From Acidobacteriota bacterium (lineage in GTDB: Bacteria > Acidobacteriota > UBA890 > WLXD01): DNA of 64,000 nt. The position numbers were made by a program, and so were the translations under genes. The DNA lies in the NCBI GenBank assembly GCA_965205505.1, contig CBDBHB010000007.1, positions 256,001 through 320,000 of the forward strand, in the 5' to 3' direction. Under the pieces are notes generated by a model that made no database searches, was not told the DNA's origin, and worked only from the letters and a program-made list of their open reading frames with translations. Shown here in pieces: positions 7,555 through 63,708 of the stretch (position 1 is its first letter; each line of letters starts with the position of its first letter).

Positions 7555-9378
7555 TCACCACCCCAACACATAATCACTCTTCGCCGGACTGACCCCTCCG
7601 AACATCACTCCGCTTTCCGGGTCGATCATCAACATCTTCACGGCGCCCGCGCCTGATGTTGCCATCCGATAGGGTTGTTGCAGCGGTACCACCTCCACTC
7701 TGTGGCCCCGCCGGCCCAGCTCCTCGCTGATGACTTCTCCCAACACCGACGGCATGGTGAGCATGCCGCGCATCCGACCGGGATACATCGACGCCGCGAA
7801 GGCGCTGCTGGTCACGGTGGCGGCCTCGACCGCCTGCTGCACGTTCATGCCGAAGTGCACGACCGCGAGAAACGCTTGCAGCATGGCTTGCGGCTGGTTG
7901 TCTCCGCCGGGCGTGTTCCACGCCAGATACGGCTTCCCGTCCTTCAGTGCGAGCGCCGGGTTGACGGTGTGTCTGGTGCGTTTACCCGGTACGAGCTCGT
8001 TCACGTCCCCCTCGTCCAGCGAGTAGTAGGGCATGCGGTTGTTCAGAACGATGCCGGTCCCATCCACGAACATGCCACTGCCGAACGTGCCGTTCACGCT
8101 GTGTGTGACTGAGACGAGGTTGCCGAACCGGTCTGCGATGGAGAACGACGAGGTCTCGCCACTTTCTTCCTGAGCCGCTGCGGGCCGCTCTACGGGCAGT
8201 GATTCGGCTTGGTACTCTGCCGCTGCACCGTCGACCACTGCGCGTTCCCGTCGTGGGTCGCCGGCAGGCGCCACCGTCATGGCGCGGTCCATCCGGATAA
8301 GCTCGCGGCGCTTTGCCGCATAGTTCTTGGAGAGCAGCTCGTCGGTCGGCACGTCGGCAAACTTGGGATCGGCTACGTAGCGGTTACGGTCGGCGAACGC
8401 CAACTTCATCGCCTCCGTAACGACGTGGATGTAGTCCACCGAGTTGTGTCCCATCTCGACCAGATCGAACTCCTCGAGGATGTTGAGCGCGATGAGCATG
8501 ACGATCCCCTGCGAGTTGGGCGCGCTCTGGTATACGTCGAGTCCGGCGTAAGTCGTCGATATGGGAGACGTCTCTTCGGCGTCGTAGGCCGCGAGGTCCT
8601 CGTACCGCAAGAGACCTCCCTCCCGCTCGTAGACGCTCCCGATGCGCCTGGCAAGGTCGCCGCGATAGAGCACGTCGATGCCGCCGCGGGAAATCGCCTC
8701 CATAGACCGAGCGAGGTCACTTTGCACGTACACGTCACCGGCACCAAGCGGGTGCCCTTGCGGCATGAGCACCAAGAGTGAAGACGGGTACGGAGAGATC
8801 TTCTCGACTGCCCGCGCGTGGTACCCGGACGCCCAGAAATCCACCGGGTGGCCTTCGCGCGCAGCCCGAATGGCGGGTGCGAGAACCTTGGCGTAATTCA
8901 TCGTTCCGTATTCGCGGAGCGCCAAGTCGAATCCGCCTGCCGCGCCAGGAACGTCGGTCGCCAGAGGGCCCGCGTCCGGGATCTCGCCGAGCTCCGTGTA
9001 GTACTCACGCGTTGCCAAAGCCGGTGCGGGCCCGGTGCCGTTGATGAACACCACTCGGTCCTCGGCGCCGAGGTAGGCAAGTATGAACCCGTCTCCGCCG
9101 ATGCCGGCCTGATGCTGCTCGACCACCGTGGTCATGTAGAACACCGCGGCGGCTGCATCGAACGCGTTGCCCCCCGCCCGCAGGATCTCCATTCCAGCGA
9201 TCGTCTCGAGTGGATGTTCCGCCGCCACCATTCCAAAGGTGCCCATTACCACCGGGCGCCAGAACGGCCTCTCGTCCGGTTGTTGTGCGAACAACCCGCT
9301 GACGTCGAGGGTGGTGGTCGACAGCAACATGGCCAACACCACAAGAATCTTGAGTACTAGTCGGGTACCGGGTTGCAT
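7555..9378 (-). CDS. ggt: Gamma-glutamyltransferase family protein
   Basis: GGNAFDAAAA, GIGGDGF, catalytic Thr in ETSSFSIAD, TPGGDNQPQ; signal peptide. Confidence 0.9.
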   Translation of the reverse strand: MQPGTRLVLKILVVLAMLLSTTTLDVSGLFAQQPDERPFWRPVVMGTFGMVAAEHPLETIAGMEILRAGGNAFDAAAAVFYMTTVVEQHQAGIGGDGFILAYLGAEDRVVFINGTGPAPALATREYYTELGEIPDAGPLATDVPGAAGGFDLALREYGTMNYAKVLAPAIRAAREGHPVDFWASGYHARAVEKISPYPSSLLVLMPQGHPLGAGDVYVQSDLARSMEAISRGGIDVLYRGDLARRIGSVYEREGGLLRYEDLAAYDAEETSPISTTYAGLDVYQSAPNSQGIVMLIALNILEEFDLVEMGHNSVDYIHVVTEAMKLAFADRNRYVADPKFADVPTDELLSKNYAAKRRELIRMDRAMTVAPAGDPRRERAVVDGAAAEYQAESLPVERPAAAQEESGETSSFSIADRFGNLVSVTHSVNGTFGSGMFVDGTGIVLNNRMPYYSLDEGDVNELVPGKRTRHTVNPALALKDGKPYLAWNTPGGDNQPQAMLQAFLAVVHFGMNVQQAVEAATVTSSAFAASMYPGRMRGMLTMPSVLGEVISEELGRRGHRVEVVPLQQPYRMATSGAGAVKMLMIDPESGVMFGGVSPAKSDYVLGW

Positions 9379-9387
9379 GGTGCTGCC
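9357..9387 (-). repeat. Kinase start-module copy D (provides the ggt N-terminus MQPGTRL)
   Basis: CTAGTCGGGTACCGGGTTGCATGGTGCTGCC is near-identical to 17892-17922 and 26064-26093. Confidence 0.7.
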
Positions 9388-9528
9388 CACAGTCGGATCA
9401 CCTCGAGCGTTGCTTGGTCTGCTGGATTCCGCAAGGATACCGCCGAAGCGAAAGCAGTCGAATACAAGCCAGTTTGCACTTTCCTACGAGGATCAGCTTG
9501 CTGGCTGAAAGAGACGCGGCCGACGCCA

Positions 9529-9600
9529 CTAGTCGAGTACCGGGTTCCTTGGCGCTGCCAGAGCAGGGTGAGTGAGCGCCTGAAACCTATCGCCAGAGCG
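9529..9600 (-). repeat. Kinase promoter/start-module copy C (ATG mutated to AAG)
   Basis: CTAGTCGAGTACCGGGTTCCTTGGCGCTGCC...GAGCGCCTGAAACCTATCGCCAGAGCG. Confidence 0.75.
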
Positions 9601-9632
9601 GGCGAGGGACTGACCCGATCGCAACAGCTTCG

Positions 9633-15322: not shown

Positions 15323-17913
15323 TCAGCCCTCGCCCCGAGCGACATCCATGATCCAGATGTCGCCAAGGGCCTCCTCCCACGTGAAATAGAGAAAGTTGCC
15401 GTCGGTGGCGAGTGCCTCGCTTCCCGGTGCGCCGCGGCGACCAGCCAGGTCGGTGACTTGGCGTGCGGCACCGTCAACCACATCGATCTCCCACACGTTA
15501 CCGGCGCGGTGATCGACGCCGAGGGCATAGATGTGGGTGCCGTCCGGGGACCAATCGTGGTAGCCGAGGCCAGGCGGGCTGAGGGCCTCAGGGGAGCCTC
15601 CCTGGACAGGTACACGCCAGATCCGCACCCCATCACCTCGGTTCGAACGAAAGGCGATCCAATGACCGTCTGGCGACCACGTGGCCGAGCTGTCACCCGC
15701 CTCGTCGAACGTCATGCGTAGCGGCGTGCCGCCCTCGCGCGGCGCCACGTAGATGTCGTTGTTGAGGTCAGGACCTACGGCGCGGAAAGCCAACCGGCGC
15801 CCGTCTGGCGACCAGGCCGGTACGAACTGCTCGCCGACACCTGACAGCGGCACCGGCAGCGCCGCACCCCCGGCCGTCGGCATGATTCGGAGGGAACGGG
15901 CGCCATCGCGATACGCGTAGAGGGCGATCTCGGAACCATCCGGCGAGAACCGAGGAGACCAGTCGGGTTGGAGATCGGCGGTCAACTGCCGCATCTCGCC
16001 ACCCGTCGCTGGCAGCATCCAGATGTCCTTGTTGCCAGAGCGATCGGTGCTGACTGCCAAGTGCTCCGCGTCGGGAGATACGTCGACGAACTCGACCCAA
16101 GCCTGATCGAACGTGAGCTGCTCGGCGTCGGCCCACGTCGACATGCGGCTCGACAATATCGGCACGCGCCATAGGTTCGCCACGAACCGTCCTTTCGAGT
16201 AAGCAAGCTGCGACCGGTCAGGTGAGAATACCGCCTGCCGCATGCCAACACCGGCCGTGACCTGGACGGGCTCGCCATCGGGGCGCCCTGGCGCGTCCAG
16301 GCGCTGGCACCACATGTCCATGCTGGAGCCACGGTTCACCAGGTAACACAGGATGCTATCGCTCACCCACGTCGGGCTCAGATGGTGTAGCTCATCGGAT
16401 GTGATTCCCCAGCTCTCACGGTCAGAGAGCCGCAGGATGCGAATCTGCGAAGTCTCGTACTCGCGCTGCCACCCGGCGACGTAGGCAACGTGCGACCCGT
16501 CCGGCGACCAAACCGGATCGTAGCCGGGGACCTTACCCGGAAGGTCGACGCGCATCGTCGAACCTGACTCGAGGTTCATGACCTCGGCGTGACTGTCCGC
16601 CCAGGAGCGCACCACGTACAACAACTGCGTGCCGTCGCCCGACCACTGAGGGGGGCTCATGGGGATGTAGCGGACATCGGTTTGGACGCCCGGTGTCGAC
16701 GATCTTGCGAGGCAATCCTGCCAAGGCGTCGACTGCCCGTCCGGTGAATAGCTGGGATATCGATCTTCGCCGGCGTTGATCCGCGGTGCGGGTTGAGCGC
16801 ACCACTGCCGGGTTGGATGATCCATATGTCCCAATCACCGTCCTGATTGGACTGGTATGCGAGCGTTCGCCCGTCCGGCGACCAAGCCGGATAGTCCTCC
16901 ACGCCGGTTGCGCTGGTGACCTGCACCGGATTGACCAGCCTGAGTGTTGTGGGCTCCGAAGGTGCACCGAGCCATCCCCTGACCAGCCAGACGAGGCCGA
17001 CCCCGACAGCCACGAAGGCGAACAGAGCCGCCGTCGCGACTGCCACCGGGAAGACCCACTTTCGCGCCAGGCTGACCTCGATCCCGAGCTTCCCGAGGGC
17101 CTGCAGCAACTCCTCAGTGGATTGAAATCGGGCCTCGGGGTCCTTCTCGAGCGTTCGTGCGATCACTTGTCCGAGATGCGGCGACAGTCGCCCGTTGAGT
17201 CGCTCTGCAGAGACCGGCGTATGGTGGAGGATTGCGTCGAACACCGCCGCCGTCGTGTTGCCGTCGAACGGCCTCGTTCCGGTGGCCATCTCGTACCGCG
17301 TCACCCCGAGCGAGAACACGTCGCTTCGCGCATCAGTAGGCTCGCCCAGCAACTGCTCAGGCGACATATAGGGGACGGTGCCTATGGTCTGACCTGCTTG
17401 TGTCAGCTCCGTAGCTGCCTGCGTATCCTCCGAGGATTCTTCGAATAGCTTGGCGATGCCAAAATCCAGCACCTTCAACCGACCGTCGTCGGTCATCATG
17501 ACGTTGGCCGGCTTGATATCACGGTGAATCACTCCGTGGCGATGTGCAGCGTCGATTGCTTCCACCAGCGGAACCGCGAGCTCGAGCCACTCATCGGGTC
17601 GCAGACCGCCCTCCGGGATCAGTTCGTTGAGCGTCTTGCCCTGCACCAGTTGCATCGTGATGAAGGGCAGCGCGGCGCTGTCCTCGACCGAGTAAATGGT
17701 CACGATGCCTGGGTGATCGAGTGAAGCTAGGGTGCGAGCTTCCCGCTTGAAGCGCGCTATGCGCTCCGGATCGCCCGAAATGGCCCCGGGAAGAACCTTG
17801 ATCGCAACGTCACGGTCCAGGGTGGTATCCCGTGCTCGGTAGACCTCCCCCATACCGCCCGCACCGAGCGGCTTAATGATCTCGAAATGACCTAATCGGG
17901 TGCCGGGTTCCAT
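15323..17913 (-). pseudogene. Ser/Thr protein kinase with TolB/PD40 beta-propeller; frame disrupted at ~16700-16795
   Basis: LGAGGMGEVY, VAIKVL, HRDIKPAN, DFGIAK, GTVPYMSPEQ, a TM helix, then WSPDG repeats continuing in ORF 15323-16834. Confidence 0.85.
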
Positions 17914-18116
17914 GGCGCTGCCGTAGTAGGGCGGGGGAGCGCCTGAAGCCTATCGCCAGAGCGCACGAGATCCAACGTCAGGAGCCGGGAGAGCCCCCTG
18001 GACCCGGACTCCAAGCCAGGCAACCACCCGTGTGCACCCGGAGTGCGCGCAGATGAGGGCGGACGGTCGCTCGCCAGCGCTCGCGTACTTGTGGACCTTC
18101 CGAGCGCATCGCCAGC
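17892..18116 (-). repeat. Kinase promoter/start-module copy A (native context); sigma70-like TTGGAT-N17-TAGGCT on the minus strand
   Basis: Long similarity with 44910-45110; core CGCCTGAAGCCTATCGCCAGAGCGCACRAGATCCAAC. Confidence 0.75.
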
Positions 18117-24250: not shown

Positions 24251-24427
24251 GATCGAAGAGTACTTTGCGAACGACCCATGACACAGTGCCCTGCGACGGA
24301 TATCTGGCCAACCGGCTGGGCGGCATCTAGATGAGATGAGAAGGCCAACCTCCTGAACGCAGTAGCCTGACGGCTCTGCAAACGTTTCTTCAAACGTAAC
24401 GGGCTCGAAGCCCAAGGAGGTTGGCCG

Positions 24428-25470
24428 ATGACAAGTGTAACGATTGGACTGGACGTAAGCGACCGGTACAGCCGTATGTGCGTGCTCGACAGTAAGGGCA
24501 GGGTGATGGAGGAAGGGCGGGTGAGGACGAGCCCGGAGGGGCTGGCGAGGCGGTTCGGGTGCGAGGAGCCCGCTCGAGTAGTGCTGGAGGTTGGAACGCA
24601 CTCGCCGTGGATGAGTGAGCAGTTGAAGCAACTGGGTCATGAGGTGCTGGTGGCTAACCCGAGGCGGCTGAAGCTGATCTATGGCGAGCACGGACCGACC
24701 GGTTGGATGCCGAGCACCTGGCACGAGTGGGCAGAATGGACCCAAAGCTGCTTAAGACGGTGCAGCATCGAGGCAGACAAGCGCGAGCGGATCTAGCCGT
24801 GATTCGGAGCCGAGATGCTCTGGTAAAGAGCCGCACGCAGTTGGTGAGCCATGTGCGTGGTGCGGTCAAGTCGGCCGGTTGTCGTATTCCCAGGTGCTCG
24901 ACGCCGGCGTTCGCGCGCACCGCGCCAGAGCACATACCGGAGCGGCTCAAGGGAGCGCTCGAGCCGGTGCTTGAAACGATCGCCATGCTGACGGGCAACA
25001 TCCAGCAATACGAGCGTCAGATCGTGCAGCTGTGCCAGGGGCGATACCCGGAGACACAGCAGCTCCAGCAAGTGGCCGGGGTCGGAGCTCTGACCGCACT
25101 GGCGTATGTGCTGACGCTCGAGGAGCCGGAACGGTTCAATACCTCCAGAGCCGTGGGCCCGTACCTGGGACTGAGACCGAAGAAACGGCAGTCGGGGGAC
25201 AAGGACCCTGCGCTACGAATAACCAAGGCGGGCGACAAAATGCTCCGACGCCTGTTGGTGGGCTCGGCGCATTACATCCTGGGCCCCTTCGGGCCCGATA
25301 CTGAGCTCAGACGCTGGGGGCTCAAGCTGGCCGGACGCGGTGGTCCTCATGGCAACAAAAAGGCAGCAGTTGCTGTCGCCCGTAAGCTCGCCGTTGTGCT
25401 GCACCGACTGTGGCTGAGTGGAGACGAGTACGAACCGTTGCGCGCACCTGTAGAGGTTTCAGCAGCATGA
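24428..25470 (+). pseudogene. IS110-family DEDD transposase/recombinase, frameshifted at ~24690
   Basis: TIGLDVS, VVLEVG, (K)TDRLDAE split by a frame change, GVGALTA, YLGLRPKKRQSG, AVAVARKLA. Confidence 0.92.
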
Positions 25471-25716
25471 ACTAACTCGCAACCAGGAGGTCGGTAGGGC
25501 GACGCGACCCAACGGTTATCGATCTGACCGCCCGGTCCGGGCGACTGCGAAGGTCACTACGAGCTTCGAGCTCGGCAGCTAGATTGCAGCGCCTCGAATC
25601 GGGACGGACCCCAGAATGCACCGGACGACCTGAATCCTCGTCCACCAGAGTGCGAATAGGAGCATGGCGTGCAGATCGATTCTTCGCTGGCCACCACATT
25701 GCCCTTGACCGAACTA
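25471..25716 (+). ncRNA. Putative bridge/seekRNA region of the IS1111-type element
   Basis: Stem CTGCGA/TTGCAG enclosing AGGTCACTA, the hairpin CGAGCT-TCG-AGCTCG and GCAGCTAG; the two loop arms match the target strands. Boundaries approximate. Confidence 0.7.
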
Positions 25717-25730
25717 GGCCTTCTCATAGA

Positions 25731-26006
25731 AGTGGCCTGAGTCAGAGGTTCGTTGCATATTGCTGGGACGAGATGGGGGCAAGCTCAAGGCGCGGAGAGG
25801 AAGGCGATGCAGTGGGTATCGTCGACGAGGCGCAACGCCGATATCGCCCGCAACTGCCCATCTGTCCGGAGGATGGCGGCGAAATCGGCCCGTCTGCGGC
25901 GTTGCTCCTCCTCGAAGATGGGCAAACATCGTCTCGTCGTCGCGCCTGGCATCCGGACCCATTTCGCCACCACGATACGCAACGATCATCTGTTACAGGC
26001 CACTAG
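25731..26006. mobile_element. MITE-like element copy 1 (degenerate TIRs, CTAG ends), left terminus interrupted by the IS
   Basis: (CT)AGTGGCCTG...CAGGCCACTAG; internal motifs GAGGAAGGCGATGC and ACGCCGAxATCGCCCGCA are shared with 63430-63708. Confidence 0.72.
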
Positions 26007-26062
26007 TTCGGCCGACGATGCACCACTGCCATGTTCTCTGAGAAGGCGAAGGGACTCCTCGA

Positions 26063-26160
26063 CCTAGTCGGGTACCGGGTTCCATGGCGCTCCCCGAAGG
26101 GTGTCGGTTAGCGCGTGAAGCCTCCAGGCACAGGAAACGAGATCCAACATCAGGAGCCCG
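26063..26160 (-). repeat. Kinase promoter/start-module copy E (MEPGTRLG, then no kinase)
   Basis: CCTAGTCGGGTACCGGGTTCCATGGCGCT...GAGATCCAACATCAGGAGCC. Confidence 0.75.
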
Positions 26161-44839: not shown

Positions 44840-44909
44840 TCTCAGATGCTCCTGTCACTGCGCTTCCGCGACCAACGCGAAAACGTGAGCTTCGAAAGCC
44901 ACCAGCGAG

Positions 44910-45110
44910 CCTAGGGGAGCCGGTGACATGGGTGCAGCTACCAGCGGGAGGTGGGTGAACGCCTGAAGCCTATCGCCAGAGCGCACAAGATCCAACTGGG
45001 AGGGGACCCGTGCAGCATCTCCCTCCCGGACTCCGAGCCACGCAACAATCCGAGTGCACCCGGAGTGTGCGCTCATGAGCGCCTACGCACGCTCACCAGC
45101 GCTCACCCAC
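44910..45110 (-). repeat. Kinase promoter/start-module copy B (degenerate start MSPAPLG)
   Basis: Aligns with 17892-18116, including an intact TTGGAT-N17-TAGGCT. Confidence 0.75.
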
Positions 45111-45119
45111 CTCCAGACC

Positions 45120-54828: not shown

Positions 54829-57270
54829 GTGACCGACAAGCTGCAAATCCAGCGTCGCACCGCTCGCGAGAGCACGATCTTCTACCGGGGGATCATCGCG
54901 GTCTGCCGCTGGTCGCATCGGTTGGCTTTCCTGTGGGTCGGGCTGACCGTGCTGCTCACTGTTCCGGCGTTCATGCGCGCGCGCACTCTCGGCCTCGACT
55001 CCGACCTGACGCGGCTCCTGCCACAGGACAGCCCGGCGGTGCAGTGGAGTCGTGACTTGGAGCCACTGGTCGGCGACGGCGGGTACTTCAGCCTCATCTT
55101 CGAGCACGGCGACCCCGAATCGCTACAAACGGCAGTCGATCAAACGGTGGCGCGATTGCAATTGCTCGAAGAGATCACCGATATCAACCACCGCTATCCG
55201 ACCGAGTTTGTCGAGCGCTACCGCTATGGGCTCGTGCCTTCCGATCAGCTCGAGACGGCCATCGAGACGATCGAGGACTGGGAAGCAGAGGTAAACCCGT
55301 TCCTCGACGATCTCGACGATTCGGCAAGCGAGGAGGAATCCGACCTCGAGCGCATCGTGCGGCTGTACAGCGAGCTGCCCGAGTACCACCGTGACGCCGA
55401 CGACACGATGTACGGAGTGATCCTGAGGACCAGCGAAGGTCTGACCGACCTGACGGGGTTGCGAAACCTTTACCAGCGCATAGATGGAATCGCCGGCGAG
55501 GCGGCGGAGGCCGCTGGGGTGGTCGTCTCCATCGGCGGCTCGCTGCGCACGCGGGTGGAGGAGTTCGACGTCATCATTTCCGACGTCACCCGAACTGGCG
55601 CGGTAGCGGCAGCGGCTATTCTGTTGATGCTGGCGATCAGCTTCCGGTCGGTGCGCGTGCTGCCGGTGCTGCTGTATCCGATCGCGGCCGGCTTGATATG
55701 GGCGTTCGCCTTCGTGCCCGATCTGGTCGGCGATCTCAACACCATCACCTCGTTCCTGCTGATGGTGTTGTTCGGCATGGGGGTCGACTATTCCATTCAC
55801 CTGGTGAAGCGCTTCCGACACGAAATCCTCAGCCAGACACCCGAGGTCGCGCTCGCCGAGACATTCACCTCTACCGGACGCTCGGTCTTCACCTCGGGGC
55901 TTACGACGTCGTTCGGGCTGTTCATCCTGGCGGTATCGGACTTCCGAGGCTTCTCGGACTTCGGGCTGATCGGCGGTACGGCGATCCTGGTGGTGACCGC
56001 GTGCATGCTGTTGGTCATGCCGGCAACGTTGAGCGCCGGTCATCGACTCGGGCTGGTTACGCCGAGCGCCCCCCGCTATCCGAGTGCTCGGCTCGCAATC
56101 CCTCCAAGCTGGTCGGCAGCTTTGCTGAGCACGCTGGTGATCGTCTCGGCCTATGCCTCGGCGTTCCTGCTCGAGTTCGACTACGACTTCGCCAACTTCA
56201 GCGCCAACCTCGAGGAGCTCGACGCGATCCGCGACAAACAGGAAGAGGTGTACCCGATCTTCTTCGGGCCCTCGGCGATCTACGTCGCACAGGACCTCGA
56301 GGCGCTCGACGAGATGCTGGCGTTGATCGCCAGCGCCGCGGCGGAACCGGGGTCGGTGATCGGGCGAGTCGCGAGCGTGCGTGACTTCGCCCCCGATGAG
56401 GCCGAGGTGCAGTTGCGACGCGACTCCTTGGAGCTGATCCAGGAGATGCTCGCTCGGCGATGGGTACGCCGCGTCGAGGACCCGGAACGCATCCGTGTCA
56501 TCGAGGATGTGCTCGGCTTCGAGATGCCAGACCGCTTGCCGCAGGTCGACGACCTGCCGGACTCGGTGCTGCAAGACATGGTCACGCTGGACGGCTCCGG
56601 CGCCTACATCCTGGGACTGCACGCCACCGGTCCGGGTAAGGACGGCATCATCACAATGCGTTTCACGCGCGAGCTCTACGACCTGGAGATGCCCGACGGC
56701 ATCCTCGGTCCGACGGGCGACAAGCCGGTACTGGCTGAGATTCTCTGGCTGGTTACGCGCGAGGGACCTCTCATCGTCGTCCTGACGTTCCTCGGGGTGT
56801 TCATTCTGGTGGTCATCGACCGTCGCGACGTGAACCAGGCGGCCTGGGTGCTGGTACCACTGGTGGCCAGCCTGCTTTTGACCTTCGGCGCCGTGATCGC
56901 TCTCGGATGGCGGGTGAACTTCTTCAATATGGTCGTGCTGCCAACGCTGCTCGGTCTCGGAGTGGATCACGGAGTGCACTACTACCGCCGCTGGCGAGAG
57001 CTCGAAGGCGATACGGCCGCAACTCAACTGGAGCTCTTCGAGCCGATCACCGTAGCAACGTTGACGACAATCATGGGGTACGCCGGGATGGCTTTCGCAC
57101 ATCATCCCGGGTTGCGCTCGATCGGCCTGCTGGCGGTCGTCGGGTTGCTGTGCACCTGGTTAACAGCTGTGGTGTTGCTGCCCGGCTTGCTCGTCTGGCA
57201 TCGCGACATAAGCAACGGCACCAAAGGCGAGGGGGCCCTCGCCGACGCCGACGTGCCTCTCGACGCCTAG
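54829..57270 (+). CDS. MMPL/RND family lipid transporter
   Basis: Two halves with GMGVDYSIHL and GLGVDHGVH; start approximate; its TAG lies in the mini-MITE. Confidence 0.87.
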   Translation: MTDKLQIQRRTARESTIFYRGIIAVCRWSHRLAFLWVGLTVLLTVPAFMRARTLGLDSDLTRLLPQDSPAVQWSRDLEPLVGDGGYFSLIFEHGDPESLQTAVDQTVARLQLLEEITDINHRYPTEFVERYRYGLVPSDQLETAIETIEDWEAEVNPFLDDLDDSASEEESDLERIVRLYSELPEYHRDADDTMYGVILRTSEGLTDLTGLRNLYQRIDGIAGEAAEAAGVVVSIGGSLRTRVEEFDVIISDVTRTGAVAAAAILLMLAISFRSVRVLPVLLYPIAAGLIWAFAFVPDLVGDLNTITSFLLMVLFGMGVDYSIHLVKRFRHEILSQTPEVALAETFTSTGRSVFTSGLTTSFGLFILAVSDFRGFSDFGLIGGTAILVVTACMLLVMPATLSAGHRLGLVTPSAPRYPSARLAIPPSWSAALLSTLVIVSAYASAFLLEFDYDFANFSANLEELDAIRDKQEEVYPIFFGPSAIYVAQDLEALDEMLALIASAAAEPGSVIGRVASVRDFAPDEAEVQLRRDSLELIQEMLARRWVRRVEDPERIRVIEDVLGFEMPDRLPQVDDLPDSVLQDMVTLDGSGAYILGLHATGPGKDGIITMRFTRELYDLEMPDGILGPTGDKPVLAEILWLVTREGPLIVVLTFLGVFILVVIDRRDVNQAAWVLVPLVASLLLTFGAVIALGWRVNFFNMVVLPTLLGLGVDHGVHYYRRWRELEGDTAATQLELFEPITVATLTTIMGYAGMAFAHHPGLRSIGLLAVVGLLCTWLTAVVLLPGLLVWHRDISNGTKGEGALADADVPLDA

Positions 57271-57312
57271 TGCTCCTGATCATAAGTACGGTGACGTTTG
57301 CAGGAGCACTAG
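57267..57312. repeat. 46-bp collapsed MITE derivative
   Basis: CTAGTGCTCCTGATCATAAGTACGGTGACGTTTGCAGGAGCACTAG equals the two ends of 63430-63708 joined at CAGGAGC. Confidence 0.85.
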
Positions 57313-57436: not shown

Positions 57437-57511
57437 TGGGGCGTCGTCCAATTGGCAAGACATACGGCTCTGGACCGTAGAATCGGGGTTCGAGTCCCTG
57501 CGCCCCAACCA
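57437..57511 (+). tRNA. tRNA-Gln (anticodon CTG)
   Basis: Acceptor TGGGGCG/CGCCCCA, anticodon stem TACGG/CCGTA with loop CT-CTG-GA, GGTTCGAGTCC T-arm, encoded CCA. Confidence 0.95.
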
Positions 57512-63429: not shown

Positions 63430-63708
63430 CTAGTGCTCCTGATCATAAGTACGGTGACGTTTGCAGGAGCGAGATGCGGGCGAGATCAAGGAAGGGTGAG
63501 GAAGGCGATGCCTTAGCCATCCTCGACGAGCCCTGACGCCGAGATCGCCCGCATATCGCTCCTCCCCTCTGGGTGGCCGCGGGACCGGCCACCTTGGGCG
63601 TCGCGGCGCCTCGACGATACACCCAGCATCGCCCTCGTCGCCGCTCCTACAATTCGCCCCGGTCGCGCGCGCCACAAACGTCACCGTACTTATGATCAGG
63701 AGCACTAG
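63430..63708. mobile_element. MITE-like element copy 2, 279 bp, perfect 34-bp TIRs starting with CTAG
   Basis: 63430-63463 is the reverse complement of 63675-63708; no credible coding capacity. Confidence 0.88.

Follow-up and report, generated by a model that had tools for sequence, protein, structure and literature searches.

An IS1111-family insertion sequence lying in the terminal inverted repeat of a MITE, probably placed there by RNA-guided recombination

In a 64-kb stretch of DNA, which was analysed as a whole and is called the window here, an IS1111-family insertion sequence (IS) lies within the extreme left end of a MITE that measures 278 bp when rebuilt. Considering the structure of the two elements, the fit of a predicted guide RNA loop to the rebuilt target and a second junction of the same kind on another contig, we think it likely that RNA-guided site-specific recombination brought the IS into the terminal inverted repeat (TIR) of this pre-existing MITE.

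The insertion sequence and the MITE that it interrupts

The features of the IS and of the MITE copies in the window are the following.

24327..24330, plus strand: left terminal CTAG of MITE A, parted from the remaining MITE by the IS; AG at 24329-30 is the left core copy
24329..25730, plus strand: IS1111-family insertion sequence, 1402 bp, its ends drawn by the convention that counts one AG copy with the IS
24336..24346, plus strand: left subterminal inverted repeat ATGAGAAGGCC, 11 nt, 100% complementary to 25717-25727
24428..24796, plus strand: transposase piece 1, DEDD/RuvC-like domain (PF01548), with homology ending at about 24691
24703..25470, plus strand: transposase piece 2, in another frame, with a coiled coil and C-terminal PF02371 (GLRPKKRQSG)
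25717..25727, plus strand: right subterminal inverted repeat GGCCTTCTCAT, partner of 24336-46
25731..26006, plus strand: remainder of MITE A, with the right core copy (AG) at 25731-32 followed by the body, 25733-26006, which ends in CAGGCCACTAG
57267..57312, plus strand: 46-bp deletion derivative of a B-type MITE, its left repeat joined to the final 12 bp of the right repeat
63430..63708, plus strand: MITE B, intact, of a second subfamily with ends CTAGTGCTCC, 279 bp, a perfect 34-bp TIR and both ends free

The IS, which belongs to the IS110 superfamily and carries both transposase domains of the IS110 family, occurs once in the 64-kb window (n = 1), and its 11-bp subterminal repeat has just two copies there. 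Beyond these repeats are asymmetric terminal extensions: with one AG counted in, AGATGAG (7 bp) at the left end and AGA (3 bp) at the right. Extensions of 7 and 3 bp in this order are what the Hall/Ataide laboratories give for the IS1111 family, whose subterminal inverted repeats are usually of 11-13 bp and perfect or nearly so (excerpts of PMC11187229). The non-coding region 3' of the transposase gene (25471-25716) has 246 nt, as against 81 nt on the 5' side (24347-24427); such a long non-coding stretch downstream of the gene is the IS1111 arrangement (excerpts of PMC11187229). Apart from an intact reading frame, the element shows every IS1111-family sequence characteristic against which we compared it.

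A single-frame transposase of 330-350 aa was not found, the span 24428-25470 being one that would hold about 347 codons. The frame is lost at 24692-24693, two bases where the protein of a relative, L001, has codons; this position was set by reading both window translations against the L001 protein. The match to PF01548 (E = 5.8e-6) reaches 26.6 bits, under the Pfam curated cutoff of 29, because the frameshift leaves only profile positions 1-82 of 155 in frame, which are the positions that the match covers. PF02371 is matched with 63 bits against a cutoff of 21.3, and the C-terminal IS1111 motif GL-P----S(t)G is present as GLRPKKRQSG (YLGLRPKKRQSGD). Given the frameshift, this copy has probably lost the ability to move autonomously, provided that the break is no error of sequencing. 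Its ends and guide module look intact, and it could move if another copy supplied transposase. Transposase relatives in the plasmid collection are at most 40% identical over the queried part, and the IS non-coding region and the MITE are without any DNA match in that collection; L002, the best plasmid-collection match of the transposase, was dropped, being without recognisable homologous ends.

The left flank of the IS ends in GGCGGCATCTAG at 24330 and the right flank opens with TGGCCTG at 25733. Joined (24327-30 plus 25733-39), the flanks give CTAGTGGCCTG, the exact reverse complement of CAGGCCACTAG at 25996-26006, which has a single exact copy in the window; joining CTAG to 25733 onwards also restores the alignment with the start of the intact MITE B at 63430. 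The MITE A rebuilt in this way is 278 bp long, and its TIRs match at 29 of 40 positions, the first 11 perfectly. Those of MITE B, which start CTAGTG, have 34 perfect positions and match at 35 of 40 overall. Rebuilt MITE A aligns end to end with MITE B (199 identical residues in 291 columns), so the match of 11 nucleotides is no chance event. A first-pass annotation of this DNA had held that the rebuilt target is the exact complement of 25996-26006 and that the IS sits precisely in the left end of a TIR element of about 278 bp, and both statements stand: the flanks rejoin as described, to a sequence whose complement has one copy in the window, and the rebuilt length of 278 bp has its counterpart in the intact 279-bp relative.

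The position of the terminal CTAG on the far side of the IS fixes the order of events, in that the MITE was there first and the IS entered it. MITE A therefore predates the IS insertion, and the empty allele at this locus would read GGCATCTAGTGGCCTG.

There are three MITE copies in the window (278, 279 and 46 bp). The two subfamilies differ in their repeat: A carries CTAGTGGCCTG at both ends, and B copies carry CTAGTGCTCCTG. Both ends of the 46-bp B-type derivative at 57267-57312 are free; it sits 125 bp upstream of a tRNA gene (57437-57508). All window copies are bounded by CTAG on both sides, a palindrome, so that a CTAG or TA duplication would look like the end of a repeat. The ORFs that cross the MITE belong to no Pfam family, and a search of Rfam gave no family for the MITE or the IS non-coding region (its matches were a tRNA elsewhere and one at chance level, E = 2.4). 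Within the 64-kb window, no parent element with matching ends and a transposase was found. Spurious ORFs of the A subfamily occur on other contigs (P0001, P0002, P0003, P0006, P0007 and P0009).

Other repeats lie close by. At 26034-26047, 27 bp past the free right end of the MITE, TTCTCTGAGAAGGC is a copy of the inverted IS right end at 13 of 14 positions, and CTAGTTCGG at the right flank of the MITE (26003-26011) is the reverse complement of 25708-16 inside the IS. These two IS-like pieces may be the relic of an earlier right-end insertion, or they may be due to chance, 63 of 387 control windows scoring as high against the whole IS. A family of repeats that start with CTAG is found at 9357-9388, 9529-9623, 17889-18097, 26061-26158 and 44909-45119. 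On the minus strand its members read ATG GAA CCC GGT ACC CGA CTA G (MEPGTRL...), preceded by a conserved leader some 70-200 nt long, and they make up the 5' ends of genes that are not related to each other (the one at 17889 is kinase-like); the piece at 26064-26085 has kept only some 8 codons. This repeat could be a mobile module of promoter and start codon, or a paralogous 5' region.

The predicted guide and its target

A target-binding module of the seekRNA or bridge RNA type is predicted in the non-coding region downstream of the transposase gene.

25540..25593, plus strand: predicted target-binding module of seekRNA/bridge RNA, its fold shared with L001
25540-43/25590-93, plus strand: outer stem, from the folds
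25545-50/25584-89, plus strand: stem of CUGCGA and UUGCAG, from the folds
25551..25559, plus strand: 5' guide arm (T) AGGUCACUA, complementary to the top strand TAGTGGCCT (MITE TIR) with one U-G wobble
25561-73, plus strand: distal hairpin, from the folds
25574..25582, plus strand: 3' guide arm (B) GGCAGCUAG, in the sense of the left target GGCATCTAG with one G-A mismatch

The comparison on which this prediction depends is with L001, an element of a Myxococcota MAG with 43% transposase identity, which was the sole relative in the genome-contig collection scanned (a collection without the source genome). Its ends are ATGAGGAGGCC and GGCCTCCTCAT, with extensions AGATGGG (7 bp) and GGA (3 bp) and AG on both sides, and its transposase holds the whole PF01548 domain (60 bits). 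When the non-coding regions of the window IS and of L001 were folded separately, we observed the same module architecture in both: an outer stem of 4 bp, a bulged A, an identical 6-bp stem (CUGCGA/UUGCAG), an internal loop, and a hairpin that differs in sequence and length. The outer stem is GGCG/CGCC in the window and GGCA/UGCC in L001, a compensatory change from G-C to A-U. In both elements the 5' side of the loop is complementary to the top-strand AG and right flank, and the 3' side is the left flank and AG in the sense orientation. The correspondence of the arms rests on the two separate folds, the alignment by MAFFT and RNAalifold having misaligned the loops because the hairpin lengths differ. 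The z-scores of the minimum free energies of the two target-binding modules are modest, at -1.7 and -2.3.

Each pair of arms is specific to its own target. The window arms score 15.5/17 on their own rebuilt target versus 7.5/17 on that of L001; the L001 arms (5' CACGCGCU on AGCGTGTG with one wobble, and 3' UCUAAAG on CCTAAAG, also with one wobble) score 14/15 on their own rebuilt target versus 7/15 on that of the window. None of 22,746 positions in L001 and none of 127,960 in the window match the L001 arms as well as the L001 target does. For the window IS, the 5' arm scores 7.5/8 over the core and right target, and the 3' arm 8/9. With the arms taken as 25551-25560 and 25574-25583, the rebuilt target scores 16.5/18, which is equalled at 0 of 127,972 window positions, the best other position having 15.5. 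A fully matching site, GGCAGCTAGTGACCT, was not found in the window when one mismatch was allowed.

The guides specify 15 bases: ten of them, CTAG and TGGCCT, are MITE sequence, and the other five, GGCAT, are flank sequence and match at 4 of 5. The 9-nt target of the 5' arm is wholly inside the MITE repeat. The 3' arm is predicted to pair with the bottom strand of GGCATCTAG, whose GGCAT portion is outside the MITE. This agrees with the first-pass annotation in two respects, namely that one guide arm reads TIR sequence, which is what the complementarity of 25551-59 to TAGTGGCCT gives, and that the other arm matches DNA outside the MITE, where 5 of its 9 bases fall and 4 of those 5 match. The right end of MITE A carries an identical TAGTGGCCT with a different flank; it scores 14/18 and is empty. 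The B-type MITE ends, whose repeat fits the 5' arm poorly, are empty as well (4 of 4).

With the top-strand arm in the 5' position and the two arms overlapping on the target, the module has, in silico, the layout by which an IS1111-type seekRNA is recognised. Candidate donor-binding matches of 7-8 nt are found in both elements: AAUAGGAG at 25655-62 against the IS right end ATAGAAG, and in L001 GAUGGAAG at 10926-33 against ATGGAAG. Another sequence considered as a right-hand guide, GGCCAC at 25689-94, was dropped, the comparison with L001 placing both arms in one internal loop.

From these observations, we hypothesize that the 5' arm of the seekRNA/bridge-RNA loop would pair with the top strand of TAG plus TGGCCT, the first bases of the MITE repeat, and that the 3' arm would pair with the bottom strand of GGCAT plus CTAG, that is, with the flank and the terminal CTAG of the MITE. 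The crossover would be at the AG inside CTAG, an AG that is now present at either side of the IS. By analogy with ISEc11, ISPa11 and ISKpn4, we infer that this RNA is produced and directs the recombinase.

The surroundings of L001 may be described here. A repeat search on L001 gave no matching repeat, and it is in no visible MITE. In the region around 11068-11393 of L001, the IS follows immediately on the stop codon of an ORF of 430 aa, a gene for a DUF4096 (IS4/5-type) transposase begins 84 bp further downstream, and the IS may also sit at the end of another transposable element; a search with the right flank of L001 matched only the coding part of IS4/5-type genes. Given the IS4/5-type gene 84 bp from L001, the targeting of the ends of other transposable elements may be a clade-wide trait.

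A second junction and the alternative explanations

Junctions between the IS and the MITE were surveyed at the protein level, using the spurious ORFs that gene callers predict through GC-rich repeats. In the window, P0004, an ORF that crosses the MITE in the plus frame, has ...QRSSVTGH as its last residues and stops at the TAG within the CTAG on the right, and the minus-frame ORF (P0005) leaves the left end of the MITE into the IS right end and ends ...SGHFYEKA-stop. Searches of 5.8 billion proteins gave five relatives of these junction ORFs.

P0001: 162 aa, on a 127,748-bp contig; past GH it continues with FYEKA and a stop (...VTGHFYEKA-stop)
P0002: 79 aa; halts after VTGH, a free right end
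P0003: 225 aa; its frame passes CTAG and enters an unrelated flank, so that this right end is free as well
P0006: 68 aa; halts after SGH, a free left end
P0007: 68 aa; uninformative on ends

P0001 is identical to the window plus-frame MITE ORF at 67 of 101 positions, and the final 41 residues differ at 2 positions. Read back from its translation, it is the right end of another A-type MITE joined, at the same nucleotide, to an inverted IS right end, this junction being seen at the protein level as five residues and a stop, or 18 nt. The MITE right end that is joined to the IS in P0001 is free in the window. The IS is thus found at 2 of the 6 readable A-type MITE ends, a count that includes the two window ends and whose sample is set by the ORFs that happened to be called. 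When the junction ORF was used to look for shorter proteins, none turned up among 45 candidates, and a profile search of 1.84 billion representatives gave 17 matches to a wider repeat-ORF family, among which there was no further FYEKA junction. This wider family of spurious ORFs (P0008-P0022) has the pattern IVDDEQRRYRP...SAALALLDD...RRRRAALHL, in tandem arrays in P0012 and P0015 and in one and a half units in P0001; its existence makes the MITE part of a larger, widespread repeat family.

Because the MITE is multicopy and has the same repeat at both ends, each A-type copy would offer two half-matched sites, and the use of a given MITE end would depend on the few flank bases that the 3' arm reads. 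On another contig, the same IS end adjoins the opposite end of the MITE at the equivalent nucleotide, which points to recurrent use of these ends, and we infer that MITE ends are a habitual target of this IS. The proposal in the first-pass annotation that the MITE family is a multicopy landing pad is accordingly upheld in part: the exact TIR site, the guide arm on the TIR and the second junction in P0001 speak for it, and the occupation of only 2 of 6 A ends, the four empty B-type ends and the need of the second arm for flank sequence leave it short of full support.

The window alone could not separate an IS directed to the MITE from a lucky 15-mer. An unlikely, though by no means negligible, explanation is that this was a one-off insertion, in which the 15-nt site of the guides happens to straddle the MITE boundary and MITE ends are no regular target. 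The match of the 3' arm to 4 of 5 flank bases outside the MITE is consistent with such an accident, as are the empty state of the other MITE A end and the 4 B-type ends, the single IS in 64 kb, and the location of the L001 relative in no visible MITE. The 9 nt read by the 5' arm are, on the other hand, entirely in the repeat, and in P0001 this IS end is met again, at the mirror position, in a second MITE copy belonging to the same subfamily; that an unrelated 15-nt site should recur in such a manner is very unlikely. As an independent event, the mirror image that P0001 appears to represent is hard to explain unless the MITE repeat is a regular target.

It is scarcely credible that the order was the reverse and that the MITE inserted beside an IS already present. 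Elements with TIRs commonly insert at CTAG or TA, and there are several CTAG-bounded repeats in the neighbourhood. A later MITE would nevertheless have both ends on one side of the IS, yet here its terminal CTAG is 1.4 kb off, on the far side; the junction at the IS right end reads GAAG-TGG and not CTAG-TGG; and the guides of the IS match the rebuilt, uninterrupted MITE end. Very improbable, too, is the notion that the 278-bp element is a module owned by the IS, in the manner of MITEPpu9/ssr9, travelling with the IS or mobilised by its transposase. The element does lie directly downstream of the IS, there is a precedent in ISPpu9, where a small element downstream of the transposase gene is also found solitary (excerpts of PMC12288879), and the 13/14 inverted copy of the IS right end at 26034-47 means that the MITE is bracketed by IS-end-like sequence. 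That similarity is not significant, as the control windows indicate (63 of 387 score as high), and the MITE has its own terminal repeats of 11-34 bp, unrelated to the IS ends, with its first four bases on the other side of the IS. Moreover, the MITE occurs alone, both in the window and on other contigs, it faces the IS with its other end in P0001, and the guide module is inside the IS and not in the MITE. Guided insertion of the IS into the end of a MITE already in place is the explanation that we retain.

Relation to known systems and significance

The target of IS4321/IS5075 is the 38-bp repeat of large Tn3-family transposons, a repeat of a large transposon and not of a MITE. These elements resemble the window IS in that they are IS1111-family members with subterminal repeats and insert in the TIR of another transposable element; the literature, as excerpted, gives their target as the terminal repeats of Tn21-family transposons. 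Other IS1111-family members use REP and attC sequences (excerpts of PMC11187229 and PMC12288879). A close case is that of Coxiella burnetii RSA 493, where 20 of 21 IS1111 copies are in the MITE QMITE2 (excerpts of PMC5896051). As in the window, IS1111 there uses a multicopy MITE, and the missing MITE bases are on the other side of the IS; however, the QMITE2 target is an internal GTAG palindrome (REP), whereas the window target is the extreme TIR with a few flank bases, and the MITE family, the host lineage and the target sequence all differ (excerpts of PMC5896051). The suggestion of the first-pass annotation that this MITE family is a landing pad not known as an IS1111 target was therefore too strong, in view of IS1111 in QMITE2 (excerpts of PMC5896051) and of IS4321/IS5075 in Tn21-family repeats, as excerpted. 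The habit as such is already known for the IS1111 family; the present case is set apart by its position at the very end of the MITE, which makes the site part MITE and part flank.

The predicted guide shares with the seekRNAs of ISEc11, ISPa11, ISKpn4 and ISPst6 and with the bridge RNA of IS621 that the arms overlap at the crossover and that the top-strand arm is 5' (excerpts of PMC11187229 and PMC11208160). Stems that are kept and arms that are changed, as between the window IS and L001, would be a natural redirection like that of ISEc11 and ISXne4 (excerpts of PMC11187229). The targets of ISEc11, ISPa11, ISKpn4, ISPst6 and IS621 are, as far as the excerpts go, a linear site, REP or attC, whereas that of the window IS is a MITE end, read from sequence alone. 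MITEPpu9/ssr9 is alike in being a small MITE-like element directly downstream of an IS110-family transposase gene that is also found solitary, but it carries ISPpu9's own ends and an sRNA, whereas the window MITE has unrelated ends and is a target, not a derivative (excerpts of PMC12288879). In the open-access literature on the IS1111/IS110 family and MITEs we found the Coxiella case and MITEPpu9, and no target made up of a MITE TIR and flank.

The window IS leaves the picture of the family unchanged and adds a class of target, the extreme MITE end, to the REP, attC, Tn21-repeat and QMITE2 targets. It is a clean natural case: the sequence by itself reveals the guide loop, its target and the order of events, and the guide arms came to light through a comparison of two distant relatives whose stems are conserved and whose arms differ. 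The number of flank bases that the second arm needs bears on the mismatch tolerance of recombinases used as programmable tools. Tentatively, and with more doubt than confidence, we suggest a two-part address for the sites of this IS lineage, with one arm fixed on the TIR of a MITE subfamily and a short, mismatch-tolerant arm reading the flank. If this were true, the spread of the MITE would create landing sites for the IS, and the flank would rank them.
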